Below, piece by piece: positions 35,862-60,593 of a DNA stretch of 64,000 nucleotides; the stretch's first letter is position 1, and each line of letters starts with the position of its first letter. Below the pieces are notes generated by a model, which made no database searches, was not told the DNA's origin, and saw only the letters and a program-made list of their open reading frames with translations. The DNA is from Candidatus Methylomirabilis sp. (GTDB lineage: Bacteria > Methylomirabilota > Methylomirabilia > Methylomirabilales > 2-02-FULL-66-22). The stretch covers positions 14,901 to 78,900 of the forward strand of contig DATIFO010000085.1 of NCBI GenBank assembly GCA_035455275.1, in the 5' to 3' direction. Made by a program: the position numbers and the translations under genes.

Positions 35862-36061
35862 TGGGGAAGGCCGCGCTCGCCAGCGCCATGCGCGCCAGGA
35901 CCCGCTGATCCTTGCGCCCGACACCCGTTCAGGTATATAAGCACCACGGCGGCCCGTGCCTGTCAGAACGATATGCGTCCCATCGGGCCATGCGCCGCCC
36001 GGGGTACCCGCCATCGCCCTGTTTCCGTCCGTTGCCGAAACACCAAGGAGGAGAAAGCCCC

Positions 36062-36883
36062 ATGGGAGCGACCCCCGCTGGCATGCGGTCGGATCGACAG
36101 ACTCAACGCGGCCTGGGCTTGCCGGTTGCCGTTCCGCCGGAGATCATCCGCAGCGCGGCCATGGCCGCCCAGGACCGCGGCTATGACTCCTTCTGGCTGA
36201 ACAACCCGCCCCGATCTGACTCGCTTCGTGTGCTGGGCGGGATTGCCCAGGTCGCGACACGCATCTGGCTGGGGGTCGGCGTCATCCCGCTCTCGGATCA
36301 CCGGCCGGCTGACATCGTGCAGGCCGTGTCGCAGAATCGCCTGCCGGCGGACCGGTTATTCCTCGGTGTCGGAAGCGGTTCGGGGGCGGGGGCCGTGGAG
36401 CGCGTGCGGGGCGGCATCCGGGCCATCCGGGCCGGGCTGGCATGCCCTCTTGTGATCGCGGCGCTGGGACCCAGAATGTGCCGGTTGGCGGGGGAGGAGG
36501 CGGATGGCGTCCTGCTCAACTGGCTCACCCCCGAGTGGGCCCGGCGCTCCATCGGTTGGGTGAGGGATGGCGCGAACGGAGCGGGCAGGCCGATGCCGAG
36601 GACGATGGCGTACGTACGCGCGGCGCGCGGCCGCGAGGCCATGGCTCGTCTGCGGACCGAGGCGGCTTTCTACGAGGCGATCCCGCACTACCGCGCACAC
36701 TTCGAGCGGATGGGGACGCCGGCCATCGGGACCGCCGTCACCGGGGAGACGCCGGAAGACATCCAGCGCGGCCTGGCTGCCTGGGGCGGGGTCGTGGATG
36801 AGGCCGTCGTGCGGGCAGTCGTCGCGCGCGACACGGTCGAGGATTTCCTGGATCTTGTCGAGGCGGCCCGGCCGATGGCATGA
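36062..36883 (+). CDS. luciferase-like (LLM class) flavin/F420-dependent oxidoreductase
   Basis: YDSFWLNNPP...LGVGVIPL...LGVGSG and a TIM-barrel LLM pattern. AAGGAGGAG SD before the ATG at 36062; the upstream part of the ORF is discarded. Confidence 0.8.
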   Translation: MGATPAGMRSDRQTQRGLGLPVAVPPEIIRSAAMAAQDRGYDSFWLNNPPRSDSLRVLGGIAQVATRIWLGVGVIPLSDHRPADIVQAVSQNRLPADRLFLGVGSGSGAGAVERVRGGIRAIRAGLACPLVIAALGPRMCRLAGEEADGVLLNWLTPEWARRSIGWVRDGANGAGRPMPRTMAYVRAARGREAMARLRTEAAFYEAIPHYRAHFERMGTPAIGTAVTGETPEDIQRGLAAWGGVVDEAVVRAVVARDTVEDFLDLVEAARPMA

Positions 36884-36910
36884 CACCGAACCCCTGAGAA
36901 AGGACAGCGC

Positions 36911-37954
36911 ATGCCGAGTGTACACGCTTCGCTCTTGACGCGCATCTGCCACGACATCCTCCTCACGGTGGGTGCCAGCGAGGAAGAGGCGAGCACGGTT
37001 GCCAGGCATCAGATCGGGGCGAACCTTGCGGGCCATGACTCCCATGGCATCATCCTGCTCTCCACCTATGTCGACCGCATCCGGAAAGGCCACATCGTCC
37101 CCGGCGCCAGATTCGAGGTCGTGCACGAGACGCCGACCACGGCCCGCATCAGCGGCAACTGGGGCTTCGGACAGGTTGTCCAGACCCGGGCCACCCGGCT
37201 GGCCATCGAAAAGGCCCGGAATAGCATGGTCGCGGCGGTGACCGTGGCCTACCAGAGCCACGTGGGCCGGCTGGCCGACTACCCGCTGATGGCGGCAGAA
37301 GCGGGGATGATCGGCATGCTCGTGTGTGATTCGGGTCGTGGTCCGAAGTATGTGGCGCCCTTTGGGGGCCGGGACGCGCGGCTCGGGACGAACCCCATCT
37401 CCATGGCGCTGCCCAGCAACCTGGAGGCCCCCATCTTCGTGGACATGGCGACGAGCCAGGTGGCGGGAGGCAAGATCCTGGTGTACCGCAATCGGCGGAA
37501 GCCGGTCCCTCTGGGCTGGCTTCTGGACAAGAACGGGAATCCGACCACCGACCCCAACGACTACTTCGCCGGCGGGGCCTTGCTGCCGCTGGGCGGACTC
37601 GACGCCGGACACAAAGGCTACGGCTTGAGCACGATGGTGGACGTCTTCGCCGGCATCCTGACGGGCCTGGGCTGGGGGATCGACCCGGCCGGCAAACACA
37701 ACGACGGCTCGTTGTTCATCGCCATCAACGTGGAGGCGTTTCGCCCGCTGGAGGAGTTCAGGGCGGAGGTATCGGAGTTCGCCCGGTTCCTGAAGGCCAG
37801 CCCTCCTGCCCAAGGGTTCAAGGAAGTCCTGTACCCAGGCGAGATCGAGTGGCTGACGACGCAGGAGCGGCTGCGCACAGGCATCCCCGTCGAGGACGAT
37901 ACCTGGACCGAGATACAAGAGCTGGCAGCCTCCGCGGGCGTGTCGACGGAGTAG
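36911..37954 (+). CDS. Ldh_2 family (malate/L-lactate/sulfolactate dehydrogenase type 2) oxidoreductase
   Basis: GHDSHGIILLSTYVDRIRKG, GNWGFGQVV, GTNPISMALP and HKGYGLS are Ldh_2 hallmarks. Confidence 0.9.
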   Translation: MPSVHASLLTRICHDILLTVGASEEEASTVARHQIGANLAGHDSHGIILLSTYVDRIRKGHIVPGARFEVVHETPTTARISGNWGFGQVVQTRATRLAIEKARNSMVAAVTVAYQSHVGRLADYPLMAAEAGMIGMLVCDSGRGPKYVAPFGGRDARLGTNPISMALPSNLEAPIFVDMATSQVAGGKILVYRNRRKPVPLGWLLDKNGNPTTDPNDYFAGGALLPLGGLDAGHKGYGLSTMVDVFAGILTGLGWGIDPAGKHNDGSLFIAINVEAFRPLEEFRAEVSEFARFLKASPPAQGFKEVLYPGEIEWLTTQERLRTGIPVEDDTWTEIQELAASAGVSTE

Positions 37955-37970
37955 GCCCCGAGTTCAGTCC

Positions 37971-38152
37971 CTAGGAGGATGCTGAAAAACCCGTCTTCGC
38001 CCAGGCTGCTCAAAAAGGTCCAGATGCAAGGCGGCGCGCCGGGTACCCATCCCCCGGGATGGGTGCAGGTGCGAGGCGTACTTAGACCGTACGCCGCAGC
38101 CCCGCGCGAGTGCGCCAACGCCGCAGATGGGCCTTTTTCAGCAGCCTGCTAG
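37971..38152. mobile_element. MITE/REP-like structured element with imperfect terminal inverted repeats
   Basis: The ends CTAGGAGGATGCTGAAAAAC (37971-90) and the reverse complement of 38133-52 (CTAGCAGGCTGCTGAAAAAG) match at 17 of 20 positions. A third copy of the motif at 38002-38020 pairs over about 40 nt with 38105-38148. Internal hairpins: ACCCATCC/GGATGGGT (38045-64) and GGCGTAC/GTACGCC (38075-95). No ORF. It fills the convergent gap between two genes. Confidence 0.4.
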
Positions 38153-40092
38153 ATCTGCCGCCCCAGCATGGCGCCGTCCAGCAGGGCCTGCATGATCCGC
38201 CCGGGGCTCTGGGCATCCCCGATGACATGTACCTGGACGCGGTCGACATCCAGTTGCGTCAATAGCTCGCGGTCCGGCCTCACCCCCACGGCGACCACCA
38301 CCGAATCGGCCGGGGCCAGCTCCCGCTCTCCCAGACGACTCAGCATGACCCCTCGTGCGGTAACAGCCTCCGCCTTGGTCTCCACCAGGATCAGGACGCC
38401 TCGCTCTCCGAGTTCCTGGGTCAGGGTCCGCTGCTCGACGACGTTGCCGTCGGCCAGGATCCGGTCCAGCATCTCGACGAGAAAGACCTCGTGATTCCTC
38501 CGCAGCAGGTACTCTGCCGAGGCGACGCCCGTGAGCCCGCCGCCGATGATCGCCACCCGACGGCCCAGGCGGTCGTCGATTTCCCCTTCCAGCAGTTGGT
38601 GGGCGGTGAAGACGTGAGGCAAGCCGGCGCCGGGGATACTCGGCACCACCGGCGTGGCACCGCTGGCAACGACCACGACCTCCGCCCGCAGGTCCTCTAC
38701 CAGCTTCAGGCTGGCCTCGGTGTGTGTGCGTACCTCCACGCCGGCTCGCTCGACCTCGTGCGCCAGGTGCTGGGCCAGCCGCTCCATCTCCACCGCGTGC
38801 GGTGCAGCCGCCGCAAAGAGGAGCTGGCCGCCCAGCCGGCGGCGCCGTTCCAGGAGGGCAACCCGATGCCCTCGACCGGCCGCGACACGGGCGGCCTCCA
38901 TGCCGGCCGGGCCTCCCCCCACCACGAGGACACGGCGGGGCACCTCGGCGGCGACGAGGCGCATCTCCGCCTCCCGGCCGGCCTCGGGATTCACCGTGCA
39001 CTGCATATCCTGCCCATGCCCGATCCGATCGGCGCATACCCCGCAGGAGATGCACTCCCGGATCTCCTCCAGCCGCCCCTCCCGGGCCTTCTTCGGCAGG
39101 TGGGGATCGGCGATCAGCGCCCGCCCCATCCAGATCAAGTCCGCCTTGCCCTCCGCCAGGATCTGCTCGGCCATGGCCGGGCGCTTGATGCGTCCCACGG
39201 TGCTGACGGCGATTCCCACCCGCGCCTTGACCCGGGCCGCGTTGTCCACGTTGAAGCCTTCCGGGACGGTGCGGGGGGGAATGGTCCACTCCGCCTCCTC
39301 GTGCGTGCCCGAGCTGACGTTTATCTCGGTCACCCCGGCCTCCTCCAGCCAGTGAGCGACCCGGCAGACGAAGTCCAACCCGTACCCGCCGTCCTGATGC
39401 TCCTCCGCGGTTACCCGCACCGCCAGGGGCGTCTGCGGCCCCATGACCTCTCGGATCTTCCGCACCACCTCCAGCAGGAGGCGGGCCCGCCCCTCCTCGC
39501 TGCCGCCGTAGCGATCGGTCCGCTTGTTGGAGCGAGGCGAGAGGAATGTGTGGAGCAGGTAGCCATTGGAGGCGTGGAGCAGGATGCCGTCGAACCCCGC
39601 CAGCAGCGCGCGTCGAGCGGCCTTCCCGTGCAGCTCGACGAGCTGCTCGATCTCCGGGATCGTGAGCGCCCGGGGGATGGTGCCGACATACAGGTGCCCC
39701 TTGGTCAGGAGCGGCACGGCCGAAGGTCCCACGGGGTACTGGCCGATGGCGCCGGCCCGGGCGTTGCGGCCCGCGTGGAGCAACTGAACGAAGATGGGGA
39801 TGTTCTCCCGATGGACCGCTTCCACCAGCTTCCGGTGCTGCGACACCATGTGATCGGCGTACAGACCCAGGCGGTGCCGTTCACTCCGGCCTTCCGGGCT
39901 GATGTAGTTCGACTCCGTGATGATGAGCCCGACTCCCCCCCGGGCTCGCTCCACGTAGTAGTCGATCTGCCGCGGCTGCAGCTCTCCCTTCTCCGTCGAG
40001 TAGTTGAGGGCCATGGGGGCCATCACCAGACGGTTCTTGAGTGTGATACCGCCCAGCCTGAACGGGGAGAAGAGGTGCGGGAAGGACGACAT
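38149..40092 (-). CDS. OYE-family NADH:flavin oxidoreductase fused to an FAD/NAD(P) domain (2,4-dienoyl-CoA reductase-like)
   Basis: N-terminal OYE TIM barrel (LKNRLVMAPM..., HAGR, GFDGILLHASNGYLLHTFLSP), an Fe-S Cys motif (CISCGVC) and a C-terminal GGGPAG Rossmann domain. Confidence 0.9.
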   Translation of the reverse strand: MSSFPHLFSPFRLGGITLKNRLVMAPMALNYSTEKGELQPRQIDYYVERARGGVGLIITESNYISPEGRSERHRLGLYADHMVSQHRKLVEAVHRENIPIFVQLLHAGRNARAGAIGQYPVGPSAVPLLTKGHLYVGTIPRALTIPEIEQLVELHGKAARRALLAGFDGILLHASNGYLLHTFLSPRSNKRTDRYGGSEEGRARLLLEVVRKIREVMGPQTPLAVRVTAEEHQDGGYGLDFVCRVAHWLEEAGVTEINVSSGTHEEAEWTIPPRTVPEGFNVDNAARVKARVGIAVSTVGRIKRPAMAEQILAEGKADLIWMGRALIADPHLPKKAREGRLEEIRECISCGVCADRIGHGQDMQCTVNPEAGREAEMRLVAAEVPRRVLVVGGGPAGMEAARVAAGRGHRVALLERRRRLGGQLLFAAAAPHAVEMERLAQHLAHEVERAGVEVRTHTEASLKLVEDLRAEVVVVASGATPVVPSIPGAGLPHVFTAHQLLEGEIDDRLGRRVAIIGGGLTGVASAEYLLRRNHEVFLVEMLDRILADGNVVEQRTLTQELGERGVLILVETKAEAVTARGVMLSRLGERELAPADSVVVAVGVRPDRELLTQLDVDRVQVHVIGDAQSPGRIMQALLDGAMLGRQI

Positions 40093-40131
40093 GGGTGCTG
40101 ACTCTCCTTCCGAGCGGGACGCGTTTGCGGC

Positions 40132-41031
40132 TCAGGCAGAGTCCACGGCCGGTCGGATGGTGTCCGTCACCAGCGCCAGGATCTCCAGCATCCGGACGGG
40201 ATCCTCGCGGCGGAACACGAGCAGGAGGTGATGGACGCCGAGTCGCTTGACCTCGCACAGGCGGTCGATGACCGCCTGGGGTCCCTGGGCCAAGAGGTCG
40301 TCGTTCAGCGTGAACCGGAGCGAGATCGTGATGGTCTCGAAGGGGCGTCCGGCCGCTTCCGCCACCGCCCGCAGGCGGGCGAGCCCGTCCCGAAGCTCGG
40401 CCGGACTCCCGGAATCCGCGTGCCAGCCGTCCCCCAGCGTCACAACCCGCCGGAACGCCCCCGCGCTGGCACCCCCCACCCAGATCGGCGGATGGGGCTT
40501 CTGCACGGGCTTCGGCGCGAAGCCGATGTCCCGGAAGCGGAAGAACTCGCCTTCAAAGGCGGGGTTCGGCGCGGTCCACAATTCCTTGAAGATGCACAGG
40601 ATCTCATCGGCCTGCCGTCCGCGGGCGTGGAAGGGGACGCCGAGGATGTCCAACTCCTGCCTCCACCATCCCACGCCGACCCCGCAGATCAGCCGTCCCC
40701 CGGAAACGGCATCCAGGCTGGAGAGCACCTTGGCCATGACTACGGGGTGCCGATGCCCAAGGATGAACACCGACGCACCCAGCCGCGGTCGAGTCGTGCA
40801 GGCTGCGACTGCGGCAAGGGCGACGACGGGCTCCAGGTACGGGGTGTCCGGTGGGAGGGGGAATGGGCCCCCGCCGCTGGGATAGCCCTCCGATACCCGT
40901 GGGAGGACGATGTGATCCCCCACCCAGAGCGATGCGATGTTGCGGCGCTCCGCCTCACGCGCGAAGGTGAGCAGGGCCTCGCGCGTGGCCTCGGGGGCCT
41001 GCATCATGGGGAGATGGCAGCCGATCTCCAT
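40132..41031 (-). CDS. LLM class F420-dependent oxidoreductase (TIGR03619-like)
   Basis: MEIGCHLP..., SLWVGDHIVLP, RLICGVGVGWW and PIWVGG. GGAGGA SD before the ATG at 41031. Confidence 0.85.
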   Translation of the reverse strand: MEIGCHLPMMQAPEATREALLTFAREAERRNIASLWVGDHIVLPRVSEGYPSGGGPFPLPPDTPYLEPVVALAAVAACTTRPRLGASVFILGHRHPVVMAKVLSSLDAVSGGRLICGVGVGWWRQELDILGVPFHARGRQADEILCIFKELWTAPNPAFEGEFFRFRDIGFAPKPVQKPHPPIWVGGASAGAFRRVVTLGDGWHADSGSPAELRDGLARLRAVAEAAGRPFETITISLRFTLNDDLLAQGPQAVIDRLCEVKRLGVHHLLLVFRREDPVRMLEILALVTDTIRPAVDSA

Positions 41032-41099
41032 GGGTCGATTCCTCCGTGCCGGGCGGTCCGCCTCCGGCACTGAGGGCCGGTGCTCCCTGCGGTGGAGGC

Positions 41100-42170
41100 T
41101 CAGCCAGCGTCCATCCCCTCGGCTGAAAGCCGCCCCACGCCATGACGCTCGCCGAGGCGGCTGAGGGTTTCCATCACCTCGACGGCCAATGGAATACCCT
41201 CCTCTCGACGTCTGGCCTCAAGGTTGAATTCGATCTCGCCCGGCAAATACACGGGCATGCCGTCGGCGGAAGGCAAGGCCTTGATTCCTTGGATGACGCT
41301 GTCGACGCTGTGTGAAAACGTGTGGGGTTCGATGAATCTCGCGACATTGATGGCAATGAACATGTGACCTGTTCTGGATCGCCCGGAGGTGTCGGTGATG
41401 TTCTTGACCTCGCCCGTCAATGCCGTACCGGTCAATGCCCCGCAGAGCAGGTCAATGACGAGCGACAGCCCCGCGCCTTTCGGCCCCCCGATCGGAGTCA
41501 GGCTGCCCTTCAGTGCCTCGAGGGGATTGTCCGTGGGCTTCCCGTCAGCATCCACGGCCCACCCCAGCGGGATCTTCTCGCCCGGCCGGGCTGCCGCCAG
41601 CCGGATCTTCCCGCGCGCCACCACCGAGGTAGACATATCCAGCACGATGGGCCGTTGCGAGCCGGCGGGTATGGCCACGGCCAGGGGATTCGTGCCCAGG
41701 AGCCGCTTCCTGGCGTTGTACGGGGTCATGGCAGGCGACGCATTGGTGAGGACGACGCCGATCATTTTCGCCGCCACCGCACGCATGGCATAGAACGCCG
41801 CAACGCCGAAGTGATTCGAGTTCTTCACCGCGACGATCCCTGCCCCGGAGTCTCCGGCTTTCTGGATCGCGATGTCCATCGCCTTCGCGCCGGCAACTTG
41901 TCCGAAGCCGTTACACGCGTCGAGCAATGCCGAGGCGGGATTGTCCCTCACCAGCGCCATCTCGGGATCGACCTCCATCACCCCGGCCTGGACCCGATCC
42001 AGATACGCAGACAGGCGGACCACCCCGTGAGAGCCGACGCCTCGGAGATCGGCGAACACGAGGGAGTCCGTCACCAGGGCGGCGTGAGTCTGGCGCAAGC
42101 CGACCTTGGTCAGCACCCCCTCACAATGCCCTCGCAGCTTCTCCGCCGACACCACGACCTTCTCGGCCAC
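41100..42170 (-). CDS. Ldh_2 family 2-hydroxyacid dehydrogenase (second paralog; ComC/sulfolactate-dehydrogenase family)
   Basis: GVGSHGVVRLSAYLDRVQAG, CNGFGQVA, GTNPLAVAIP and PKGAGLSL. Confidence 0.9.
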   Translation of the reverse strand: MAEKVVVSAEKLRGHCEGVLTKVGLRQTHAALVTDSLVFADLRGVGSHGVVRLSAYLDRVQAGVMEVDPEMALVRDNPASALLDACNGFGQVAGAKAMDIAIQKAGDSGAGIVAVKNSNHFGVAAFYAMRAVAAKMIGVVLTNASPAMTPYNARKRLLGTNPLAVAIPAGSQRPIVLDMSTSVVARGKIRLAAARPGEKIPLGWAVDADGKPTDNPLEALKGSLTPIGGPKGAGLSLVIDLLCGALTGTALTGEVKNITDTSGRSRTGHMFIAINVARFIEPHTFSHSVDSVIQGIKALPSADGMPVYLPGEIEFNLEARRREEGIPLAVEVMETLSRLGERHGVGRLSAEGMDAG

Positions 42171-42265
42171 AACTCACCTCCTGGCAACGGTCCCCGCTGA
42201 TGGAGATTGCCTTCCCGCGGACCCGGCCGGTGAGGGGTACGGCCCTTCTCCCGCCTCGAGGCCGC

Positions 42266-42838
42266 TCAGCGCGGCTTCTCGATGGCGCGCACGAAGCGGT
42301 ACTTGAAGAAGAGCGGGTCCCGCGGGGGGCGGGCCGTGGCCTTCTCCGGCAGCACCTTGGCGGCGATGAACCAGGGGCCGGGTTCGGCCAGCGCCCGGTC
42401 CACGGCGGCGGAGAATCCCGCCTCGTCCTCGACGGCGATCGCCTGGCGCACCCCTGCTGCCCTGGCGATGCCGGCGAGGTCGGTCCCGGCCGAGGTGTGG
42501 GTCGGCTGCCGGCCGGTCGTCTCGTAGACCTCGTCGTCCCAGACGATGTGGACCAGGTTCCGCGGTGCCTTGCGGGCGATGGTCGCCAGGGAGCCGAGGT
42601 TCATCAGGATCGAGCCATCCCCATCCAGGACGATCACCCGCAGGTCGGGCCGCGCCAGCGCCAGGCCCAGGCCCATGGAGGAGATCATGCCCATCGAGCC
42701 CCACGAGTACAGATTGCGATCTCGATCTCCCGCCCCGTACAGATCGTAGGTCGGGCCGCCGATGCCGCCAAGGAGCACCTGATCCGTCACCTTGCCGCAC
42801 AGGAGCTTGGTGGCCTGCGCCCGTGTGAGTCTATTCAT
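42266..42838 (-). CDS. TPP-dependent decarboxylase beta subunit (sulfopyruvate decarboxylase ComE-like; PP-binding domain)
   Basis: TPP motif LDGDGSILMNLGSLATI in a protein of about 190 aa, and an 8-nt overlap with the alpha subunit gene. Confidence 0.8.
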   Translation of the reverse strand: MNRLTRAQATKLLCGKVTDQVLLGGIGGPTYDLYGAGDRDRNLYSWGSMGMISSMGLGLALARPDLRVIVLDGDGSILMNLGSLATIARKAPRNLVHIVWDDEVYETTGRQPTHTSAGTDLAGIARAAGVRQAIAVEDEAGFSAAVDRALAEPGPWFIAAKVLPEKATARPPRDPLFFKYRFVRAIEKPR

Positions 42839-43349
42839 CTTTCCCTCCGGTGAGCTGTCGCGACAGGAGGATCCCGAGGGGCGTCCGCGTGCTATAGGCC
42901 AGCTTGATCCCGTCCGCGACGAGGCTCTCGACCTCCTCGGGACGCGTCGGGGTCACGTGGGGGATGCCCAGGGCCTCCAGGATCGGCCGGGTGGCCCGGC
43001 CCATGCCGGTCTGGCTCACGTTGAACTCCCCCAGCTCCCCCCGCTGGCTCAGGAACATCAGGAACGGAATCTGCCACGGCACCGCCAGGGAGGCCAGGGC
43101 GTTCACGCAGTTCCCCAGGCCGCTGTTCTGTGCGAGCATGGCCCCCCGCCGCCCGCCCAGGTAGGCGCCGGTGAGAATCCCCACGCACTCCTCTTCCCGG
43201 GCGACGGGCACCATCTCGAAGGAGGGGTCCTTCTCCAGGAGCCCGAGCACCCGGTAGACGATCGAGTCCGGCAAGTAGGCGATCAGCTTCACCTCGTGGC
43301 GTTTGAGGGTCGCCACGATGCTCTCGGCCCACAGCATCCCATCCTCCAT
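42831..43349 (-). CDS. TPP-dependent decarboxylase alpha subunit (ComD-like; pyrimidine-binding domain)
   Basis: VAREEECVGILTGAYLGGRRGAMLAQNSGLGNCVNALASL in a protein of about 172 aa. The split two-gene architecture is typical of ComDE. Confidence 0.8.
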   Translation of the reverse strand: MEDGMLWAESIVATLKRHEVKLIAYLPDSIVYRVLGLLEKDPSFEMVPVAREEECVGILTGAYLGGRRGAMLAQNSGLGNCVNALASLAVPWQIPFLMFLSQRGELGEFNVSQTGMGRATRPILEALGIPHVTPTRPEEVESLVADGIKLAYSTRTPLGILLSRQLTGGKDE

Positions 43350-43423
43350 TCTGTCGGCCCCGGGCGGACCCCTCGCACCCGAGAGCGGCCTCGCCTTGGC
43401 CGACCGATCGCGTGACGAAGCGG

Positions 43424-43906
43424 TTAGGCCAGGGTCTTCCTGATGTGCTGGATCAGACCGCCCGCCGCTATCATCTCCCGGATGAAGGGGGGCAGGGGGG
43501 CAGCGGCAAAGACCATTCCCCTGGATCGATTCACGATCTCTCCCCGTGCCAGGTCAACCTCGAGCGTATCCCCGTCGGCGGTCGCCCGCACGGCCTCCTC
43601 ACACTCCAGCAGCGGCAGGCCAATATTGATCGCATTCCGATAGAAAATCCTCGCGAATGAAGCGGCGAGGACAACCCCGACGCGGGACGCCTTGAGGGCC
43701 ATCGGGGCGTGCTCGCGGGAGCTCCCACAGCCAAAGTTCTTCCCCGCCACCAAGACATCACCGGGGCGGGCCCTCGTCCTGAAGCTCGGGTCGATGCCTT
43801 CCATGGCATGGAGGGCCAAGGTCGCGGAATCGCTAATATTGAGATACTGACCGGGCAGGATGACATCCGTATTGACATTATCTCCGTACTTGAGGGCAGT
43901 ACTCAT
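43424..43906 (-). CDS. aconitase-family hydro-lyase small subunit, short archaeal type (LeuD/HacB/DmdB-like)
   Basis: 160 aa; GDNVNTDVILPGQYL and GKNFGCGSSREHAP. Overlaps the large-subunit gene by 4 nt. Confidence 0.9.
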   Translation of the reverse strand: MSTALKYGDNVNTDVILPGQYLNISDSATLALHAMEGIDPSFRTRARPGDVLVAGKNFGCGSSREHAPMALKASRVGVVLAASFARIFYRNAINIGLPLLECEEAVRATADGDTLEVDLARGEIVNRSRGMVFAAAPLPPFIREMIAAGGLIQHIRKTLA

Positions 43907-45168
43907 GAGACGATCTCCTCGGGCGACCCGATTCGGCCAAGGACCGCAGAGGCGGCCGCTACGGCCGGGTTGGACAGATAGACTTCCGAGTCCACGGCCC
44001 CCATCCTCCCCCGGAAATTGCGATTGGTGGTCGCGATCGCCTTCTCCCCGGATGCCAGGATGCCCATGTGCCCCCCCAGGCAGGGACCACAGGTGGGCGT
44101 GCTCACGACACCTCCCGCTTGGATGAAGACCTCGATCAAGCCTTCCCTGAGGGCCTGAAGGTAGATCGTCTGCGTTGCAGGGATGATGATCAGTCGAACG
44201 CCCCGGTGCACCTTCCGACTTCGGAGAATGGATGCGGCGATCCTCAGATCCGTGATCCTTCCGTTGGTGCAGGATCCGATCACGGCCTGGTCTATCGCCA
44301 CGGTGCCGACCGCGCTCACGTCTCTGGAGTTGCTGGGAGAAAATGGCACTGCGACCTGGGGCTCCAGCTTGCCGACGTCAAGTTCGAGCTGTTCGACAAA
44401 GCTGGCGTCGGGATCGCTCCTGACCACCGCATACGGAAGCGTGACTCTTCCCTCCAGGTATTCGAGCGTGGCCTCGTCCGGCTCCATGATCGCCGTTTTT
44501 GCCCCCGCCTCTGAGGCCATGTTCGTGATGCTGAATCGATCGTCCATGGAAAGACTCGCGAGTGCCTCGCCGCCGAACTCGATGGAACGATAGCGAGCGC
44601 CCTCATCGCCGATGCGTGCCAGGGTATGGAGGATGAGGTCCTTGCCGGTCACCCATCGCCCGGGAGTGCCCCGGAAGGTGACCCGCATCGTTTCGGGCAC
44701 CCGCAGCCAGAGTCGACCGGTGGCGAGGACTGCGGCGCCATCGGTACTCCCGATGCCTGCGGCGAAGCAGCCGAGCGCTCCGGCGGTGCACGTGTGCGAG
44801 TCTCCGCCCAAGAACAGCATCCCCGGGTAGACGAAGCCCTGCTCGGCCAGGAGGGCGTGTTCAATGCCCATCTCGCCCAGCTCAAAAAACCGAATGCCAT
44901 GCGCCCTGGCGAACTCCCTTACCCGCCTGGTCTGTTCGGCGGCGCGCACATCCTTGTTGGGAACGGAATGGTCGGGGATGAGGACGACCTTGGCAGGATC
45001 GAAAACTCTCCCGATGCCGATCTGCTCGAACTGGTCGATGGCAATGGGTGTTCCCAGGTCGTTCATCATCAAGAGGTCTACCTCGGCTTCGATGATTTGA
45101 CCCGGCGCCACCTCCTTGTTGCCGCTATGCGCCGCCAGAATCTTCTGGGAAATCGTCAGGCCAGACAT
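43903..45168 (-). CDS. aconitase-family hydro-lyase large subunit, archaeal type (LeuC/HacA/DmdA-like)
   Basis: TISQKILAAHSG, DHSVPN, the Fe-S cysteines (GGDSHTCTAG, IGSCTNGR, CGPCLG). AGGAGGA SD 7 nt before the ATG at 45168. Confidence 0.9.
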   Translation of the reverse strand: MSGLTISQKILAAHSGNKEVAPGQIIEAEVDLLMMNDLGTPIAIDQFEQIGIGRVFDPAKVVLIPDHSVPNKDVRAAEQTRRVREFARAHGIRFFELGEMGIEHALLAEQGFVYPGMLFLGGDSHTCTAGALGCFAAGIGSTDGAAVLATGRLWLRVPETMRVTFRGTPGRWVTGKDLILHTLARIGDEGARYRSIEFGGEALASLSMDDRFSITNMASEAGAKTAIMEPDEATLEYLEGRVTLPYAVVRSDPDASFVEQLELDVGKLEPQVAVPFSPSNSRDVSAVGTVAIDQAVIGSCTNGRITDLRIAASILRSRKVHRGVRLIIIPATQTIYLQALREGLIEVFIQAGGVVSTPTCGPCLGGHMGILASGEKAIATTNRNFRGRMGAVDSEVYLSNPAVAAASAVLGRIGSPEEIVS

Positions 45169-45279
45169 CCAGAATCCTCCTCTGACCGGTATCAGGCCTT
45201 CCGTCACTCGGCCGGCACTACCGGGGTCATGCTGTCGCCTGGATCGTCGCCTCTCCCCCGAGTTCTCCCGGTCGGTGCC

Positions 45280-46455
45280 CTACTGAGCTGGGAGAAAGGC
45301 CCAGCCATCGGAGAGAATCCTGGCCGTCCGTCCGACCCATGCCTCCTGCAGGGCCCAGGTGTCGTTTCTGTTGGAGACGGATACCTTGATGTCAATGATT
45401 CCCGCAGGGTGGCCGATGCGCACCACCGGCCGGCCGTGAGCCTCGCCGCGCATCGCCTCGTAGACGATGCTCCCCTTGACCCGGGCGGCTGCCCCGGTCG
45501 CAATGGTACCCGTGACCGCATAGGCCTTGTGCCACGTGGCGTTGGCGACCAGGCGACAAACAACCTCGAGGCTATCCCCCTTCACCATCCCGCCGGTCAG
45601 ATGGTTCGGGTAGTTGCAGGGAGGCGCCACCAGAATGAAAAAGGGGTTACAGATCAGTGCCGTATCCAGCGCCTTGCGGTCGGCGATCAGACCAAGCTGC
45701 TCCGCGAACTGCGCCCTCACGTCCTCCAGGCGTCTGATCACGTTCTCCTGCTGCAACGTCCGGAGCGAGGCGTCGGCCGAAATCCCCAGGTCGGAGGCAC
45801 GCACGAACACCCCCAGGTTCCCCGCGTCGACCACCGAGGCCTCGAGGTCCCCCAGGCCCTCGATCCGGAATGTATCCCGAACATTTCCGGTGGGAAGCAG
45901 ACCCTTCTTCAGGATTCCCCCTTCCATCTGAGCATAGTCGAGATCGATGCGGGCGGCCGTTCCCGGCACGCCATCTATGGCATAGTCCCCGAGAGCTTTG
46001 AGCTGTCCTCCCTCAACGGGAAAGCGTGCGGTGATGACCTTCCCCACGTTCACCATGTGAATACGGATGGAGGCGACCGCTTCCTGGCTCTCCGCAAGCC
46101 CCCGGAAGAGGGCAAAGGGGCCGACAGCGGCTGACAGGTTCCCACAGTTCGCCGCGTAATCCACGGCGGGGACGTTGATCCCTACCTGGCCGAACAGATA
46201 ATCGACCGCCGCATCCTTGTGGGTGGAGGGGCCGAGGATCGCCACCTTGCTCGTCAAGAGCTCCGCCCCGCCGAGACCGTCGATCTGGCGCAGGTCGGGA
46301 CTCCCGAAGAGTCGGAGAATAACTCTGTCACGTTCCTTCTCATCTGAAGGAAGGTCGTTACGCAGAATGAAGAGTCCCTTGCTGGTGCCTCCACGGACGA
46401 TTGCCAGACGGATTGCCGTCGCACTTCCACTGTATCCATAGACTGTCTGTTGCAT
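45280..46455 (-). CDS. PrpF/AcnD-accessory family isomerase (methylaconitate/methylitaconate/oxalomesaconate isomerase family)
   Basis: IRGGTSKGLF, SKVAILGPS and the catalytic Cys context ANCGNLSAAVGPFA. Confidence 0.85.
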   Translation of the reverse strand: MQQTVYGYSGSATAIRLAIVRGGTSKGLFILRNDLPSDEKERDRVILRLFGSPDLRQIDGLGGAELLTSKVAILGPSTHKDAAVDYLFGQVGINVPAVDYAANCGNLSAAVGPFALFRGLAESQEAVASIRIHMVNVGKVITARFPVEGGQLKALGDYAIDGVPGTAARIDLDYAQMEGGILKKGLLPTGNVRDTFRIEGLGDLEASVVDAGNLGVFVRASDLGISADASLRTLQQENVIRRLEDVRAQFAEQLGLIADRKALDTALICNPFFILVAPPCNYPNHLTGGMVKGDSLEVVCRLVANATWHKAYAVTGTIATGAAARVKGSIVYEAMRGEAHGRPVVRIGHPAGIIDIKVSVSNRNDTWALQEAWVGRTARILSDGWAFLPAQ

Positions 46456-46600
46456 CTTCCCTCACTCCTGTCTGCGCGTGATGGTTCGCACGAGTCAGCC
46501 TGACAGCCCGGGCGCGGGAGGATTCAATACATCTCTGCCCTCTAGAGCTTCCGTGTTTCCTGGGCGGGGGACGAGGCCGCCTGCTTGTTGAGTGCCCATC

Positions 46601-46630
46601 ACAATACCTCCCATGGAAAGACCATGTCAA
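46601..46630 (-). promoter_or_regulatory. sigma70-like promoter candidate for the prpF-led operon (TTGACA-18 nt-TATTGT)
   Basis: Minus strand reads gatgTTGACAtggtctttccatgggaggTATTGTgatg, about 145 nt upstream of the prpF-like start. Confidence 0.45.
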
Positions 46631-46745
46631 CATCGGGTCAAGACTTGTCCGTCCAGGTACTCAACGTGCGTGATGCGTCCGAACCATCCGCGATGAGGCG
46701 ATGAGATGATGTCCCGGATCGCACTCTTCACGAGCTGGTTTTGGC

Positions 46746-46774
46746 TTGACACAGATTCCCGGGTGCAGCATGCT
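46746..46774 (+). promoter_or_regulatory. promoter candidate of the recurrent TTTTGGCTTGACAC...GCATGCT family (amidohydrolase gene)
   Basis: ctggTTTTGGCTTGACACagattcccgggtgcagCATGCTccg with a 17-nt spacer. Confidence 0.5.
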
Positions 46775-46875
46775 CCGCTCGCCAAACCTTCCTTGGCCGC
46801 TGCCCGGGCCGGCGTCGGCTCCCCCGGAGGCCGCAGGGACCTGCGGGCAAGGGGCGAGGAACCGGGAGGAACAGC

Positions 46876-47778
46876 ATGATCGTTGACATGCACCGCCACC
46901 TGTGGTCCGTATTCGAGCGCCATCCCAGCGCCAGCCATCTCTTCACGCGGCGGTTCGGCTCCCCTGGAGGCCAGGAGGTCACACTCGATGCGGAAAGACG
47001 GGCAGCCGATGTCCTGGCTGAAATGGACGAGGCTGGAATCGGTCGGACGGTGATCGTGGTGGCGGATTTCGCCCTGCGGCTGGGGGAGGGCCTGTTTGCC
47101 ATCGAGGAGGAAAACCGGCTGGTCGCCGGCCTCGGACGGTCCCATGCCGGCAGGATTCTCCCCTTCCTGGGCGTCGATCCCAGACGTCCCGGCGCGCTGG
47201 AGCTCTTCCGCAAGGGCCTCGACGAGTGGGGCATGGCCGGTCTCAAGCTGCATCCCGCCAGCGGGTTCTTCCCGTATGATCCCGTCTGCTTGCCCCTCTT
47301 CGATCTGGCCGGCCAACGAGGCGTGCCGGTCCTGGTTCACACCGGCCCGATGGTTGCCCCGCTCCTCAGTCGCATGGCGCAGCCTGTCCACCTGGACGAG
47401 GTGGCCGCAGACTTCCCCAGGACAACCATCATCATGGCCCACGTTGGGCTGTGCTGGTGGGAGGAGGCCTTGAGCATTGCCTGGCACAAGCCCAACGTCG
47501 TTCTCGAGCTGTCCACGTGGCAGTGGACCTTCCTGAGGGACCCCCGGGAGTTCGTCCGTGCAGTCGCCACCATGAAGGACAGCATTGGCGCCGAGCGGAT
47601 CGTCTTCGGCAGCGACTTCCCCGCCCTGCGGGGGGCGATGTCCTTGCGGAGCTGGGTCGAGGTGTTCCAGGGGCTCCCCGACCTGGCCCGGGAGCACGGT
47701 CACCGCATCTCCGACTCCGAAGCCCAGGCCATACTGGGTGGGAATGCCGAAAGACTGCTCCATCTGGGCGACTCATAG
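46876..47778 (+). CDS. amidohydrolase_2 family metal-dependent hydrolase/decarboxylase
   Basis: IVDMHRHLW (HxH), GLKLHP, VLVHTG, MAHVG and FGSDFP form the amidohydrolase TIM-barrel ligand pattern. Confidence 0.85.
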   Translation: MIVDMHRHLWSVFERHPSASHLFTRRFGSPGGQEVTLDAERRAADVLAEMDEAGIGRTVIVVADFALRLGEGLFAIEEENRLVAGLGRSHAGRILPFLGVDPRRPGALELFRKGLDEWGMAGLKLHPASGFFPYDPVCLPLFDLAGQRGVPVLVHTGPMVAPLLSRMAQPVHLDEVAADFPRTTIIMAHVGLCWWEEALSIAWHKPNVVLELSTWQWTFLRDPREFVRAVATMKDSIGAERIVFGSDFPALRGAMSLRSWVEVFQGLPDLAREHGHRISDSEAQAILGGNAERLLHLGDS

Positions 47779-47979
47779 AGATCGTCCGGACGACCACCAG
47801 GCGAAGCAAACCCGGGGCATCGTTTCAGAAGGGATGGGCCGGCACCTGCACACGGCCCGCCCGAATCCGTCGCGCCAGAGCCCGTCGGTGAAGCCTCGCC
47901 CAACGGGGCGATCCATCCGCACTTGCCTCGCACCGGCCCCCTCGCTCCTTCGCACCCCCGCCCCTGGGATGGTTTTTGC

Positions 47980-48010
47980 TTGACACCGCCCCCCCGGGTT
48001 ACGTTATGCT
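47980..48010 (+). promoter_or_regulatory. promoter candidate of the recurrent family, upstream of the leuD relic and leuB
   Basis: ggTTTTTGCTTGACACcgcccccccgggttacgtTATGCTccc with a 19-nt spacer (18 nt if the -10 is read as TTATGC). Confidence 0.45.
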
Positions 48011-48094
48011 CCCGCGCGGTCCGGGGCGGGAGGGCCTCGTACTGAGCGTATCTCGGCAGGACCACTCGCGCCAACCGCACGTCCCTATCGCCGC

Positions 48095-48374
48095 CACCCC
48101 GTTGTGTTCGTGCGCACGCAGCTCGCGAGCCGACAAGCGGAGGGGGCACCGGGCTACCGGCTGACGGTGGCTCCCCCGCGCGCAGGGCGTGCGCACGCCG
48201 GGGGGCGAGTCCCTGCCGTTCCCGATCGACGCTTTCCGCAAGCGCTGCATCATCCAGAGCCTCGACCCCATCGCCCAAGCGCTCACGCACGCCGAGCGCA
48301 TCCGTGCCTTCGAGGCCTGGCGGGGCGCCGAGGCGCCCTGGATCTTCCGCGGCTTCACGGAGGTGAGTCCATGA
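48095..48374 (+). pseudogene. leuD: C-terminal relic of a bacterial-type 3-isopropylmalate dehydratase small subunit (leuD), frameshifted
   Basis: Frame ending at 48374: ...[47 protein letters not shown]. This aligns with the E. coli LeuD C-terminus as I recall it ([36 protein letters not shown]). Just upstream, in another frame, [11 protein letters not shown] resembles the LeuD ...LTVDL segment, so a shift must occur near 48168-48172. The roughly 110 N-terminal residues and the whole of leuC are absent. Confidence 0.6.
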
Positions 48375-49435
48375 CCATCGCGATCCTGCCCGGTGACGGC
48401 ATCGGCCCCGAAGTCGTGACGCAGGCGGTGCGGGTCCTCCGGGCCCTCCAGCGCCGGGGCGTGCGCCTCGAGCTGGCGGAGGCCCCCATCGGCGCCACCG
48501 CCTACGAGCAGCACGGCGACCCCCTCCCCCCGGCCACCTTTGACCTCGCCCGGCGGGCGGACGCCATTCTCTTCGGGGCGGCCGGCGGCTTCGAGTACGA
48601 GACGCTGCCGCGCGGCAAGCGGCCGGGGGATGCCGTGCTGCGGCTGCGCAAGACGCTCACCCTCTACGCCAACTTCCGGCCCGCCATCCTGTTCCCCGAG
48701 TTGCTCGGCGCCTCGACCCTGAAGCCCGAGGCCGTGCGCGGTCTCGACCTGCTCATCCTCCGCGAGCTGAACGGCGACATCTACTTCGGCGAGCCCCGCG
48801 GCAGCACCACGGGCGCCGACGGCCAGCGCGCGGCCTTCAACACCATGCGCTACCAGGAGGCCGAGGTGGCGCGCATCGCCCACGTCGCCTTTCGCGCGGC
48901 GCGGGGGCGGCGGCGCAAGGTCTGCTCGGTCGACAAGGCGAACGTGCTGGAGACCTCGGAGCTGTGGCGGAGCGTGGTCACGGAGGTCGGTCGCCAGTAT
49001 CCCGACGTGGAGCTGACCCACCTGTACGTGGACGCCGCCGCCATGTCCCTGGTGCGCAAGCCGACCCAGTTCGATGTCATCGTGACCGGCAACCTCTTCG
49101 GCGACATCCTGTCCGATGAGGCGGCGATGCTCACCGGCTCCATCGGCATGCTGCCCTCGGCCTCGCTGGGGGAGGGAACCAAGGGGCTCTACGAGCCGGT
49201 GCACGGCTCGGCCCCCGACATCGCCGGCAAGGACATCGCCAATCCGCTGGCCGCCATCCTGTCGGCCGCCATGCTGCTGCGCCAGAGCCTCGGCCTCGCC
49301 GAGGCCGCCGGACAGGTCGAGCGGGCGGTGCGCGCGGCCCTGGCCCAGGGCTATCGCACGGCCGACATCGCGGAGCCGGGCGGGCGGCTGGTCGGCACGG
49401 AGCAGATGGGCGCCGCTGTCGTCGCGGCCATCTGA
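48371..49435 (+). CDS. leuB: 3-isopropylmalate dehydrogenase
   Basis: [31 protein letters not shown] and [35 protein letters not shown]; the ATG at 48371 overlaps the relic stop (ATGA). Confidence 0.95.
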
Positions 49436-49466
49436 GCGGCGCGGGTGTGGACGAAGGTCGAGGATC

Positions 49467-50405
49467 ATGTCCGAGAGAACTCCCTTCGGAGAAGGAGAAT
49501 CCGCCGTGACTAGAGCGGACGAGCTGCTGAACGGTGCTATTGACATGCATTTTCACTCGTATCCGGAATGTGGCCTCGAGATGGCTCGCCGATACACGCT
49601 CGAAGAGCATGCCGCTGAAATGCTGAGGGCCGGGATGAAGGGGTTTGTGCTGAAATCTCACTTCTGGCCCACGGCGGAACGGGCGTTCTCCCTGCGACAG
49701 TCGCTGCCGGGCTTGGAGGTGTTTGGGAGTATTACCTTGAACCCGACCGCGGGTGGGCTGAAGCGCTGGGCGCTGGAAGCCGCGGTGAAGCAAGGGGCGA
49801 AAGTCGTCTGGCTTCCCACCTGGAGCGCCAAGGGCGATATCTCGCGGAACGGAGTGATTCGAATGATCCGGGGATATTTCCCCTCGTTTGAAGAGTTCAC
49901 GCTGGGGCAGGCGATCAGCCTGATCGACGAAGGAGGGGAGCTGACACGCGAAGCAGCCGAGATCATCTCGTTGGTCAAGGAATTGGATGTCGCCCTGTCC
50001 ACCGGACATATCTCCCCGGTGGAGACCCTGGCGGTCGCCCGGGAGGCCAAGCGAATAGATTTCCGCAAGCTGATCTTTGGCCACCCGGATTCCAGGTCGG
50101 TGGGCGGCAGCTTCGAGCAGGTGGTCGAAGTGGCCGGCTTGGGAGGCTATGTGGAGATCTGTGCGCTTGGCCTCATGCCTCTCATGTGGAGGATCACACC
50201 CGACGAGTTCAAGCGCACCATTCAAACCGTCGGAGCGAGCCGGTGCATCCTGACGACGGACTACTTCTTTGATTGGTTGCCGTCTGGCCCGGAAATGCTC
50301 CGGCTGCTGATCGCGTGCCTGCTGGAGATCGGCATCACGGCGGACGAGATCAGGGAAATGGCAGTGGTGAACCCTCGCAGACTCTTGAATCTCGAAATGG
50401 AGTAA
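49467..50405 (+). CDS. amidohydrolase-superfamily TIM-barrel protein (DUF6282-like)
   Basis: AIDMHFHSYPE, GFVLKSHFWPT, VFGSITLN, VVWLPTWSA, LSTGHIS and TTDYF suggest a metal-dependent hydrolase fold. The family name is from memory only. Confidence 0.7.
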   Translation: MSERTPFGEGESAVTRADELLNGAIDMHFHSYPECGLEMARRYTLEEHAAEMLRAGMKGFVLKSHFWPTAERAFSLRQSLPGLEVFGSITLNPTAGGLKRWALEAAVKQGAKVVWLPTWSAKGDISRNGVIRMIRGYFPSFEEFTLGQAISLIDEGGELTREAAEIISLVKELDVALSTGHISPVETLAVAREAKRIDFRKLIFGHPDSRSVGGSFEQVVEVAGLGGYVEICALGLMPLMWRITPDEFKRTIQTVGASRCILTTDYFFDWLPSGPEMLRLLIACLLEIGITADEIREMAVVNPRRLLNLEME

Positions 50406-50514
50406 ATCCCTGGGTGATGCCCCTGGCTCGGCTCTCCGGGCAGCCGAGACGTGTCGCGCCCTGACTGCTCTCGTTGATGCTGTGCTGCAACTTCCGAACC
50501 GTGAGGAGGAAGCG

Positions 50515-52194: not shown

Positions 52195-52250
52195 GTTGAG
52201 GTAGGATCCGGGCCGGCGCACCCGATGGCTGCGCCGGCCACAGGACTCAC

Positions 52251-53207: not shown

Positions 53208-53292
53208 GGAGATCGCCGTCACCCTGGGTCTCGGCCGCTCGCCGTGTGTGATCCGGTCGTGCCCTGGCCACCCCAGCCGATCGGGAGACGTT

Positions 53293-60585: not shown

Positions 60586-60593
60586 GAGTCGGT

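Follow-up and report, generated by a model that had tools for sequence, protein, structure and literature searches.

Do eight adjoining genes of an uncultured Methylomirabilota/NC10 soil bacterium serve one pathway, or were they brought together from independent sources? The question is raised by positions 38149-46455, minus strand, of a 64,000-nucleotide stretch of contig DATIFO010000085.1 from Candidatus Methylomirabilis sp., called here the window, in which genes for a PrpF-family isomerase, a two-subunit LeuCD-type hydro-lyase, a split thiamine pyrophosphate (TPP) decarboxylase (subunits TPPa and TPPb, together TPPab), an Ldh_2-family dehydrogenase, a luciferase-like (LLM) oxidoreductase and an old yellow enzyme (OYE)-type flavoenzyme follow one another. 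According to our analysis the cluster is a recently assembled mosaic at the strain or species level and not a conserved pathway, and we tentatively suggest that it works as a lineage-restricted catabolic operon for an unsaturated or branched dicarboxylate, put together from separable modules, any particular substrate within this general scheme being much less probable than the scheme itself. The combination of genes is new but restricted to a narrow lineage, and it is built of known enzyme kinds.

Eight consecutive open reading frames (ORFs) occupy the locus, all with coding-type G+C content at third codon positions (GC3) in the composition analysis. The eight co-directional, closely packed genes of the original prediction, which was made from the letters of the window only, were found at the coordinates it had given, and its family calls were borne out for all eight products by Pfam and NCBIfam profile searches. 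Shine-Dalgarno-like sites precede every one of the eight genes (8/8), and the starts that they back shorten three of these: LeuC, first listed as 43903-45207, begins at 45168 and has 421 aa, the same length as the gene call P0241 on the window's own contig; TPPa, first listed as 42831-43349, begins at 43337 and has 168 aa, matching its relatives; and LLM, first listed as 40132-41070, begins at 41031. With the revised starts the spacings from PrpF to OYE are 111, -4, 86, -8, 95, 68 and 39 nt. The predicted overlaps of 4 nt (LeuC/LeuD) and 8 nt (TPPa/TPPb) are thereby present but confined to the two heteromeric enzymes, all the other junctions being gaps of 39-111 nt, and no terminator-like site was found within the cluster in the scan. 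Taken with the family assignments, the ribosome-binding sites at all genes, the short gaps and the lack of an internal terminator-like site argue for a catabolic operon.

The first gene (45280-46455) encodes a PrpF-family double-bond isomerase that covers positions 4-371 of the 371 of PF04303 and reaches 322.7 bits against a cut-off of 27. It stays under the threshold of the PrpF equivalog TIGR02334 (263 against 440.55 bits), as well as under that of its top NCBIfam match, the 4-oxalomesaconate (OMA) tautomerase LigU/GalD model NF033377 (295.9 against 440). When PrpF, LigU/GalD and 3-methylitaconate delta-isomerase (Mii) are compared as possible placements, Mii comes out best: the matches in the PDB are 298.5 bits for Mii (3G7K), 228.5 for PA0793, 221.9 for PrpF and 156-161 for LigU and YbhH, with LigU at 161. 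By this comparison the protein appears closest to Mii among its solved relatives. It keeps the Lys (TSK) and Cys (NCGN) motifs that align with the catalytic residues of 3G7K, 2H9F and 2PVZ; the Mii equivalents of PrpF K73 and C107 are reportedly K62 and C96 (Velarde et al. 2009). Catalytic roles of K73 and C107 in PrpF itself have been described (PMC5690661). Neither AcnD nor PrpB or PrpC was found next to the homolog.

Of the hydro-lyase, the large subunit (43903-45168, with a GGAGG Shine-Dalgarno site before 45168) is an aconitase-family protein of the archaeal or LEU2 type of LeuC, whose score on the equivalog model TIGR02083 is discussed below and which passes the subfamily model NF001614 (597.8 bits, cut-off 385). 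The small subunit (43424-43906), a LeuD-type protein with an Aconitase_C domain, has a start that overlaps the LeuC stop; it remains under the cut-off of TIGR02084 (202.6 against 245.85 bits) and passes the LeuD/DmdB subfamily model TIGR02087 (192.6, cut-off 108.95). Its best PDB match is the small subunit of the M. jannaschii isopropylmalate (IPM)/citramalate isomerase (3VBA, 171.5 bits); that of homoaconitase, 2PKP, scores lower, with 140.8. Placement with hidden Markov models, which the original prediction had proposed, thus assigns the pair to the IPM-isomerase type, just under the LEU2 cut-off for LeuC and clearly under the equivalog cut-off for LeuD. A homoaconitase (HacAB/AksDE) identity is not supported: the HacA_Meth model gives 469.8 bits against 550 and the HacB models 154-169 against 230, and the specificity loop of LeuD reads YLNI, where IPM isomerase has YLVY and homoaconitase YLRT. 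This loop is uncharged and has no homoaconitase Arg, and together with the nearer match to the IPM/citramalate isomerase it points to a substrate with a neutral alkyl group and not to a tricarboxylate.

Next in order come the two genes of the split TPP enzyme. The alpha subunit TPPa (42831-43337; PYR domain, TPP_enzyme_N; GGAGGA Shine-Dalgarno site) is ComD-like, and its score on the sulfopyruvate decarboxylase alpha model TIGR03845 is borderline, 146.3 bits against a cut-off of 147.95; on the phosphonopyruvate decarboxylase (Ppd) model TIGR03297 it has 79.2 bits against 312.5. The beta subunit TPPb (42266-42838; PP domain, TPP_enzyme_C) is ComE-like and shares the 8-nt overlap with alpha; it stays under the cut-offs of PRK06163 (176.5, cut-off 240), ComE TIGR03846 (160.9, 221.5) and Ppd TIGR03297 (140.8, 312.5), and its best PDB match, at 94.5 bits, is 9IZ3, a putative phosphonopyruvate decarboxylase beta subunit. 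The choice between ComDE and Ppd that had been put to the profiles hence comes out as a ComD-like alpha near its cut-off, a beta under that of ComE, and both far under Ppd. The nearest outgroups of the pair, at 55-58% identity, stand in a sulfonate-biosynthetic context (locus L003; loci from other sequences are numbered in this way throughout) and in a carboxylate-catabolic one (L005) alike, so that the substrate cannot be read from similarity. The Ldh_2-family 2-hydroxyacid/2-oxoacid dehydrogenase (41100-42170; PF02615, 400.2 bits) reaches 312.7 bits on the sulfolactate dehydrogenase ComC model NF040650, under the cut-off of 500, and in the PDB it matches best the sulfolactate dehydrogenase 2X06 (254 bits), along with two malate dehydrogenases of type 2, 1V9N and 1VBI. 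Neither the isomerase with LeuCD nor the Ldh_2 with the split TPP pair reaches the curated equivalog thresholds of the families to which they are likened.

The last two genes encode redox enzymes. The LLM oxidoreductase (40132-41031, GGAGGA Shine-Dalgarno site) scores 231.2 bits on TIGR03619, the F420-dependent (Rv2161c) family, over the cut-off of 166.9, from which dependence on F420 is predicted at the family level; no close solved structure emerged from the PDB comparison. The OYE-type protein (38149-40092, 647 aa; Oxidored_FMN 266.4 and Pyr_redox_2 113.6 bits) joins in one chain a flavin mononucleotide (FMN) TIM barrel, a four-Cys motif C-x2-C-x2-C-x11-C and domains for flavin adenine dinucleotide (FAD) and NAD(P). 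It lies under every equivalog cut-off (BaiCD 509.9 against 825, mycofactocin OYE_2 495.9 against 793) and matches best the 2-naphthoyl-CoA reductase 6QKG (289 bits) and the 2,4-dienoyl-CoA reductase 1PS9 (263.5 bits) in the PDB, a Fe-S flavoenzyme which, judged by its domains, is of the FadH/naphthoyl-CoA-reductase architecture. The convergent operon at 35912-37954 (plus strand) encodes another LLM and another Ldh_2, the latter 34% identical, together with CinA and a group-II pyridoxal phosphate (PLP) decarboxylase; with these paralogues the pairing of Ldh_2 and LLM is present twice in the window.

From these assignments a route may be suggested, in which the Mii-like PrpF homolog would act on an imported unsaturated or branched dicarboxylate, related to itaconate, methylitaconate, mesaconate or aconitate, and turn it into a 2-substituted maleate by shifting a double bond, and LeuCD, being of the IPM/citramalate-isomerase type, would add water to yield a 3-substituted malate. 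Ldh_2 may then oxidise this 2-hydroxy-dicarboxylate to an oxaloacetate-like 2-oxoacid, which the ComDE-type split TPP enzyme would decarboxylate to an aldehyde; this step is chemically reasonable, since the ComDE/Ppd clade is known to use sulfopyruvate and phosphonopyruvate, both of them isosteres of oxaloacetate. Redox steps, with the aldehyde or a C=C bond as their target, would finally fall to the F420-type LLM and the FadH/OYE-type flavoenzyme. The route is supported by the Mii-like PrpF, the IPM/citramalate-type LeuD, the recurrent adjacency of PrpF and LeuCD genes, the importers that adjoin relatives of LeuC, the preservation of the LeuD/TPPa junction in a 95%-identical contig, the co-occurrence of Ldh_2 and TPP decarboxylase genes elsewhere and the aldehyde dehydrogenase genes that follow TPPab homologs.

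The more robust result is the cassette of a Mii-like PrpF and LeuCD, which is met across phyla, including a plasmid of the cultured gammaproteobacterium Yersinia ruckeri. PrpF-like genes stand next to LeuCD-like genes in the lineage of the window, in the seven loci L151-L157, in L160 and L161, and on the Yersinia ruckeri plasmid. The LeuCD pair of L151-L157 is non-orthologous to that of the window, its LeuC being just 44% identical. In L160 and L161 the PrpF protein is 48-50% identical, the order is LeuC-LeuD-PrpF with a 4-nt overlap, and genes for PrpD, a citryl-CoA-synthetase-like protein, a CoA-transferase and a CoA-ligase are the neighbours. Other PrpF-like genes on plasmids have different surroundings, PrpD and a tripartite tricarboxylate transporter (TTT) in Paracoccus and CoA enzymes in Cupriavidus, so the adjacency is recurrent and not universal. 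Relatives of LeuC adjoin importers, namely a Liv-type ATP-binding cassette (ABC) system in L158 and a tripartite ATP-independent periplasmic (TRAP) transporter in L159. Candidate substrates of the cassette, that is itaconate, citraconate, mesaconate and the aconitate isomers, are plant, fungal or immune metabolites.

Two observations on plasmids may be recorded here. The IncFII plasmid p17Y0159.1 (L164) of Yersinia ruckeri, a fish pathogen, carries a compact cassette at 5635-8093, in which a LeuD-like gene and one with a PrpF domain accompany an aconitase family gene that measures only 798 bp and may be truncated. Plasmids of Piscirickettsia salmonis carry a similar PrpF gene, 41.6% identical to that of the window, beside insertion sequence (IS) elements.

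To our knowledge, the sole characterised precedent for a cassette of Mii-like PrpF and LeuCD is that of Eubacterium barkeri, whose nicotinate fermentation reportedly employs Mii together with DmdAB, a LeuCD-like 2,3-dimethylmalate dehydratase (Alhapel et al. 2006, PNAS 103:12341). The analogy with this organism, drawn in the original prediction, fits: the homolog is nearest to Mii, the adjacency recurs widely, the isomerase of the window likewise adjoins a two-subunit LeuCD-type hydro-lyase, and its LeuD passes the LeuD/DmdB model. Unlike in E. barkeri, the cluster has no nicotinate genes (2-methyleneglutarate mutase, enamidase, nicotinate dehydrogenase), the gene of the isocitrate lyase (ICL)/phosphoenolpyruvate (PEP) mutase family is 10 kb away and not conserved, and LeuCD is followed by the TPP decarboxylase, Ldh_2, LLM and OYE; the host, probably an aerobe, is a member of another phylum. 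A second known pairing of this sort is that of AcnD and PrpF in the 2-methylcitrate cycle of Shewanella oneidensis, where an aconitase-superfamily dehydratase acts with a PrpF-family isomerase on an unsaturated carboxylate (PMC5690661). The window has the same pairing of families, with the catalytic Lys and Cys of the isomerase kept, but a split LeuCD in the place of the monomeric, AcnA-type AcnD (64 bits on TIGR02333 against a cut-off of 1419.85), a PrpF that falls short of the TIGR02334 threshold, and no prpB or prpC. The protocatechuate 4,5-cleavage and gallate pathways (LigU/GalD with LigJ/LigI) share with the window a PrpF-family isomerase beside an Amidohydro_2 protein; unlike them, the window has no dioxygenase and no RraA-type aldolase. 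This reading was rejected, LigU being the most distant solved relative (161 bits) and the amidohydrolase having no meaningful match to LigI or LigJ.

The Ldh_2 and TPP genes of the later part of the route are also found together elsewhere, in the NC10 metagenome-assembled genome (MAG) of L007, in the order Ldh_2-IclR-TPPab, and in methanogen ComC-ComDE loci (L070, L076). A catabolic role is indicated by the aldehyde dehydrogenase gene that follows TPPab homologs in a Gemmatimonadetes MAG and in proteobacteria that have been cultured. The locus L005, with a TPP homolog at 55%, is a carboxylate cluster with an aldehyde dehydrogenase, an HpcH aldolase and PrpD, and a 59% homolog of Ldh_2 adjoins a Na+:dicarboxylate symporter (L089). 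The Chloroflexi locus L037, with TPPab and PanE proteins each at 50%, was considered as a shared cluster and set aside, its neighbours being uninformative.

Some of these loci deserve a mention of their own. L088 (14-4533) and L087 (81-7981) contain an Ldh_2 (62-63% identical to that of the window), a LeuD-like protein, an RraA-type aldolase and a tartrate dehydrogenase equivalog (575 bits, over 470), and have as further members a CoA transferase, a TPP enzyme of full length and two more dehydrogenases, one a short-chain dehydrogenase/reductase (SDR) and the other specific for D-2-hydroxyacids; the cluster looks like an uncharacterised hydroxy-dicarboxylate route. L003 (6722-11289, GCA_020725105.1) and L004 hold a compact bacterial cluster in which a ComDE-like pair (57-58% / 48% identical to that of the window) is joined by a 3'-phosphoadenosine 5'-phosphosulfate (PAPS) reductase, an ATP-sulfurylase-ComA fusion and a His_Phos_1 phosphatase; it looks like a sulfolactate/sulfoacetaldehyde biosynthetic route.

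How far does the unit of eight extend as a whole? The original prediction had proposed conservation of the gene order in related genomes as a check, and the order was encountered only in L001 and, as far as its contig reaches, in L162. The former is a contig of 10.8 kb of the MAG GCA_035456365.1, with an identical PrpF and 99.96% identity to positions 44316-55077 of the window; the latter, a 95%-identical contig from another sample, reads PanE <- Amidohydro_2 <- | -> PrpF -> LeuC -> LeuD -> TPPa before it ends, and so keeps the LeuD/TPPa junction by which the isomerase/hydratase part is joined to the TPP part. Close homologs that bear a name are labelled Candidatus Methylomirabilis, Methylomirabilales or NC10. 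In a genome scan anchored on TPPb, none of the 80 returned loci had PrpF or LeuCD nearby, and a metagenome scan anchored on Ldh_2 returned the cluster at none of 65 loci. A conserved eight-gene operon was rejected accordingly, its order being absent around the TPPb homologs compared (L002-L085, from the genome scan and look-ups) and around the 65 Ldh_2 loci, relatives of 76-84% and 79-81% identity included.

Several facts weigh against the catabolic operon that we suggest. The eight-gene order is seen nowhere beyond its own lineage, and the case for co-function rests on adjacency there. Close relatives of each module live in other company: those of TPPab, at 76-84% identity, after an ABC importer of the SBP_bac_1 type in L002 and L006, and in L007 beside genes for a transposase, Ldh_2 and IclR; those of Ldh_2, at 79-81%, among unrelated neighbours (L086, L090); an 83% ortholog of LeuC after the Liv-type importer of L158, with no leu genes; a 69% homolog in the arrangement LeuC-LeuD-LeuB-TRAP (L159); and the PrpF orthologs of L151-L157, at 78-87%, after an Opp-type ABC importer and before the different LeuCD pair (44% identical) and an Iso_dh gene. 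No regulator gene is present among the genes of the cluster. GC3 lies at 0.76-0.80 in the genes of PrpF, LeuC, LeuD and Ldh_2 and at 0.86-0.92 in those of TPPa, TPPb, LLM and OYE, an unevenness which points to a mosaic origin and from which, together with the differing contexts of the relatives, we conclude that the assembly was recent. The roles assigned to LLM and OYE are guesses. LeuC, finally, has a borderline score of 603.2 bits on the LEU2 equivalog TIGR02083, less than 8 bits under the cut-off of 610.65 for bona fide LeuC, which leaves room for a biosynthetic role.

This last point is the basis of the strongest of the rival explanations, in our judgement an unlikely one that nevertheless has to be taken seriously: there would be no single pathway but a recent juxtaposition of independent functions, with LeuCD engaged in leucine or isoleucine (citramalate-route) biosynthesis next to a nearby leuB, perhaps having replaced a lost bacterial-type leuCD, and with the TPP enzyme, Ldh_2, LLM and OYE each performing some other, unrelated task. 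LeuC is indeed 59-64% identical to annotated LeuC proteins of many other phyla, LeuD is closest to an IPM/citramalate isomerase small subunit, and a true leuB is found 3 kb away on the other strand behind the relic of a bacterial-type leuD, an assemblage resembling the LeuCD/LeuB of the leucine/citramalate route (M. jannaschii MJ0499/MJ1271); each module occurs separately in close relatives, and the GC3 of the cluster is heterogeneous. The original prediction had stated that a LeuCD pair clustering with the enzymes of leucine biosynthesis, in a neighbourhood not conserved in relatives, would speak against a novel route, and part of this is what we observe, the pair being of the IPM-isomerase type and the neighbourhood not conserved. 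Unlike leucine LeuCD, however, both subunits are under the equivalog cut-offs, LeuD clearly so, and the near-threshold score of LeuC is weakened as a proof of biosynthesis, since the LeuCD of L160, in an obviously catabolic cluster with PrpD, a CoA-ligase and PrpF, scores nearly the same (588.4 and 200.8). Nor can the adjacency of leuB serve as a proof of housekeeping LeuCD: the leuB block is an indel relative to L162, which lacks it already at 95% identity and yet keeps PrpF-LeuCD-TPPa. The operon partners are enzymes of catabolic type and the closest LeuC relatives adjoin importers; about five LeuC clusters at an identity of at least 69% were found in a search of 5.8 billion proteins, which does not fit a core housekeeping gene in so common a clade of soil bacteria; and the recurrent adjacency of PrpF and LeuCD argues for a common function.

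A more ambitious version of the catabolic operon can be formulated, which we regard as doubtful: a new route for a branched or exomethylene dicarboxylate of the alkylitaconate or citraconate type, in which an enzyme of the ComDE/Ppd clade decarboxylates a 3-substituted oxaloacetate (a carboxylate in the place of a sulfonate or phosphonate), an F420-dependent LLM processes the resulting aldehyde, and the widespread LeuC-LeuD-PrpF cassette represents an uncharacterised general entry module. Should all eight genes cooperate, 2-oxoacids of the carboxylate kind would join the substrates of the ComDE/phosphonopyruvate-decarboxylase clade, and dicarboxylate catabolism would be tied to an F420-type enzyme in a soil phylum that is major and yet uncultured. 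The statement of the original prediction that no characterised pathway joins these enzymes agrees with our literature searches, which gave no characterised operon with this combination; no paper was found in them that pairs PrpF with sulfopyruvate decarboxylase, and a LeuCD-PrpF cassette was found only within the known work on AcnD/PrpF, Mii and aconitate isomerase.

Slightly less probable again is a sulfonate route, in which Ldh_2 would be ComC-like, TPPab a sulfopyruvate decarboxylase producing sulfoacetaldehyde, and PrpF and LeuCD active on a sulfonated unsaturated acid. As in ComC plus ComDE, which serve in the making of coenzyme M and in the breakdown of sulfolactate by bacteria, the split TPP pair has overlapping genes beside Ldh_2 and the predicted chemistry leads from a 2-hydroxyacid to a 2-oxoacid and to an aldehyde; TPPa falls short of the ComD cut-off by less than 2 bits, TPPb scores higher on ComE than on Ppd, sulfolactate dehydrogenase is what Ldh_2 matches best in both NCBIfam and the PDB, a 57-58% homolog of TPPb (P0083) is accompanied by the ATP-sulfurylase-ComA fusion, PAPS reductase and phosphatase described above, and a TauE-family sulfite exporter is encoded at 25703-26449. 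Unlike in that system, TPPb and Ldh_2 are well under the ComE and ComC cut-offs, and among most candidate coding ORFs of the 64-kb window there is no Xsc, SuyAB, CuyA, ComA, ComB or sulfonate importer; the TauE gene is 12 kb distant, in a different gene group, and the equally close TPP homolog of L005 belongs to a carboxylate cluster. We know of no sulfonate pathway with PrpF or LeuCD enzymes. The sulfonated substrate that had been proposed alongside the branched one drew no support from its context in the window.

Very improbable, lastly, is that the cluster synthesises a cofactor-like molecule or a natural product, such as a phosphonate by way of phosphonopyruvate decarboxylase and a step like that of aconitase (compare pantaphos, FR-900098 and phosphinothricin): LeuCD-like dehydratases do serve in phosphonate biosynthesis (PMC7858074), TPPb has its best solved match in the beta subunit of a putative phosphonopyruvate decarboxylase and a PEP-mutase-superfamily gene lies at 55881-56864, but the protein of the latter scores 89.3 bits on the model for PEP mutase, whose cut-off is 319.55, and is nearer to methylisocitrate lyase, its block is absent from L162, the Ppd scores of 79 and 141 are far under 312.5, and the neighbours are importers, with no synthase, tailoring, ligase or export genes.

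Returning to the operon itself, its 5' side carries a sigma-70-like promoter match, TTGACA-18-TATTGT, at 46601-46630 (minus strand), which precedes the start codon of PrpF by some 145 nt. The single promoter-like site of the original prediction is thus present, and it is the sole minus-strand match in the scan of 37500-47000; it is a match to consensus only and on its own not significant, with 2 sites found against 0.9 expected. The 420-bp intergenic region upstream of PrpF is 95% conserved in L162. The G+C content of the window is 63-71%, with the stretch of 44-48 kb the lowest in the region (0.63-0.64).

On the 3' side, between the convergent OYE gene and the second Ldh_2 gene, an imperfect palindrome of about 150 nt is found at 37971-38152. 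It begins at the OYE stop codon, has its arms at 38002-38027 and 38123-38148 in the inverted-repeat search, and runs between the termini CAGGCTGCTGAAAAAGG ... CCTTTTTGAGCAGCCTG; its minimum free energy (MFE) is -98.7 kcal/mol (z = -2.97), and no T-tract was found in it. A clearly related copy is present in L090 (approximately 80-250), another Methylomirabilota-like contig, and a short hairpin form in the Chloroflexi MAG of L037 (17382-17420), from which it follows that the palindrome is a dispersed repeat and not a device particular to this operon; it looks like a dispersed intergenic element of the repetitive extragenic palindrome or miniature inverted-repeat (REP/MITE) kind. The structured element at which the operon had been said to end is hence a real palindrome, but a dispersed one with no T-tract. 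No Rfam family or riboswitch matched at the gathering score in the 5' region of the cluster or in the palindrome.

As to the flanks, the original prediction saw in the neighbouring amidohydrolases, leuB, decarboxylase-like gene and importers a possible larger island, which is not a stable unit: the block with leuB, DUF6282, an importer and the PEP-mutase-family gene, as well as the block of the second importer, is absent from L162. The divergent Amidohydro_2 gene (46876-47778, plus strand; PF04909, 131 bits) is the only flank gene whose position beside PrpF persists there, at 94.7% identity; its PDB relatives are only the uncharacterised BB4693 and, weakly (E = 1e-3), a putative 2-pyrone-4,6-dicarboxylate hydrolase. 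L162 continues from Amidohydro_2 to PanE and OYE2, which in the window correspond to a PanE/ApbA-family 2-oxoacid reductase (56875-57936, plus strand; TIGR00745 182.2 bits, over the cut-off of 141.35) and to a second FadH/OYE-type Fe-S flavoenzyme (61816-63855, plus strand; 42% identical to the OYE of the cluster). The window has in addition a block of 9.1 kb (47779-56886), with the leuD relic, leuB, DUF6282, an SBP5 ABC importer, an iron-containing alcohol dehydrogenase (Fe-ADH) and the ICL/PEP-mutase-family gene, and a block of 3.6 kb (57937-61469) with a second SBP5 importer, orthologous (87-91% nucleotide identity) to the importer which precedes the PrpF orthologs in L151-L157.

Within the first of these blocks, the leuD C-terminal relic and an intact leuB together occupy 48177-49435 (plus strand). 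The relic (48177-48317) matches the last approximately 47 residues of E. coli LeuD in tblastn with E = 1e-6; the 61-codon ORF at 48177-48374, which contains it, overlaps the leuB start by 4 nt and is a MAG gene call with a weak LeuD_C match. LeuB (48371-49435) is a true equivalog on TIGR00169 (469.9 bits, over the cut-off of 353.2). Upstream of the relic there is neither leuC nor the N-terminus of leuD, and this lone C-terminus before leuB suggests that a canonical leuCD-leuB operon was truncated at 48177-48374. Further away in the window, a 258-aa ORF at 32973-33749 has a weak match to reductive dehalogenases (43 bits, cut-off 160), and genes for a URO-D-like (methyltransferase-type) protein, a B12-binding protein and the TauE/SafE-family exporter stand together on the minus strand at 22735-26449.

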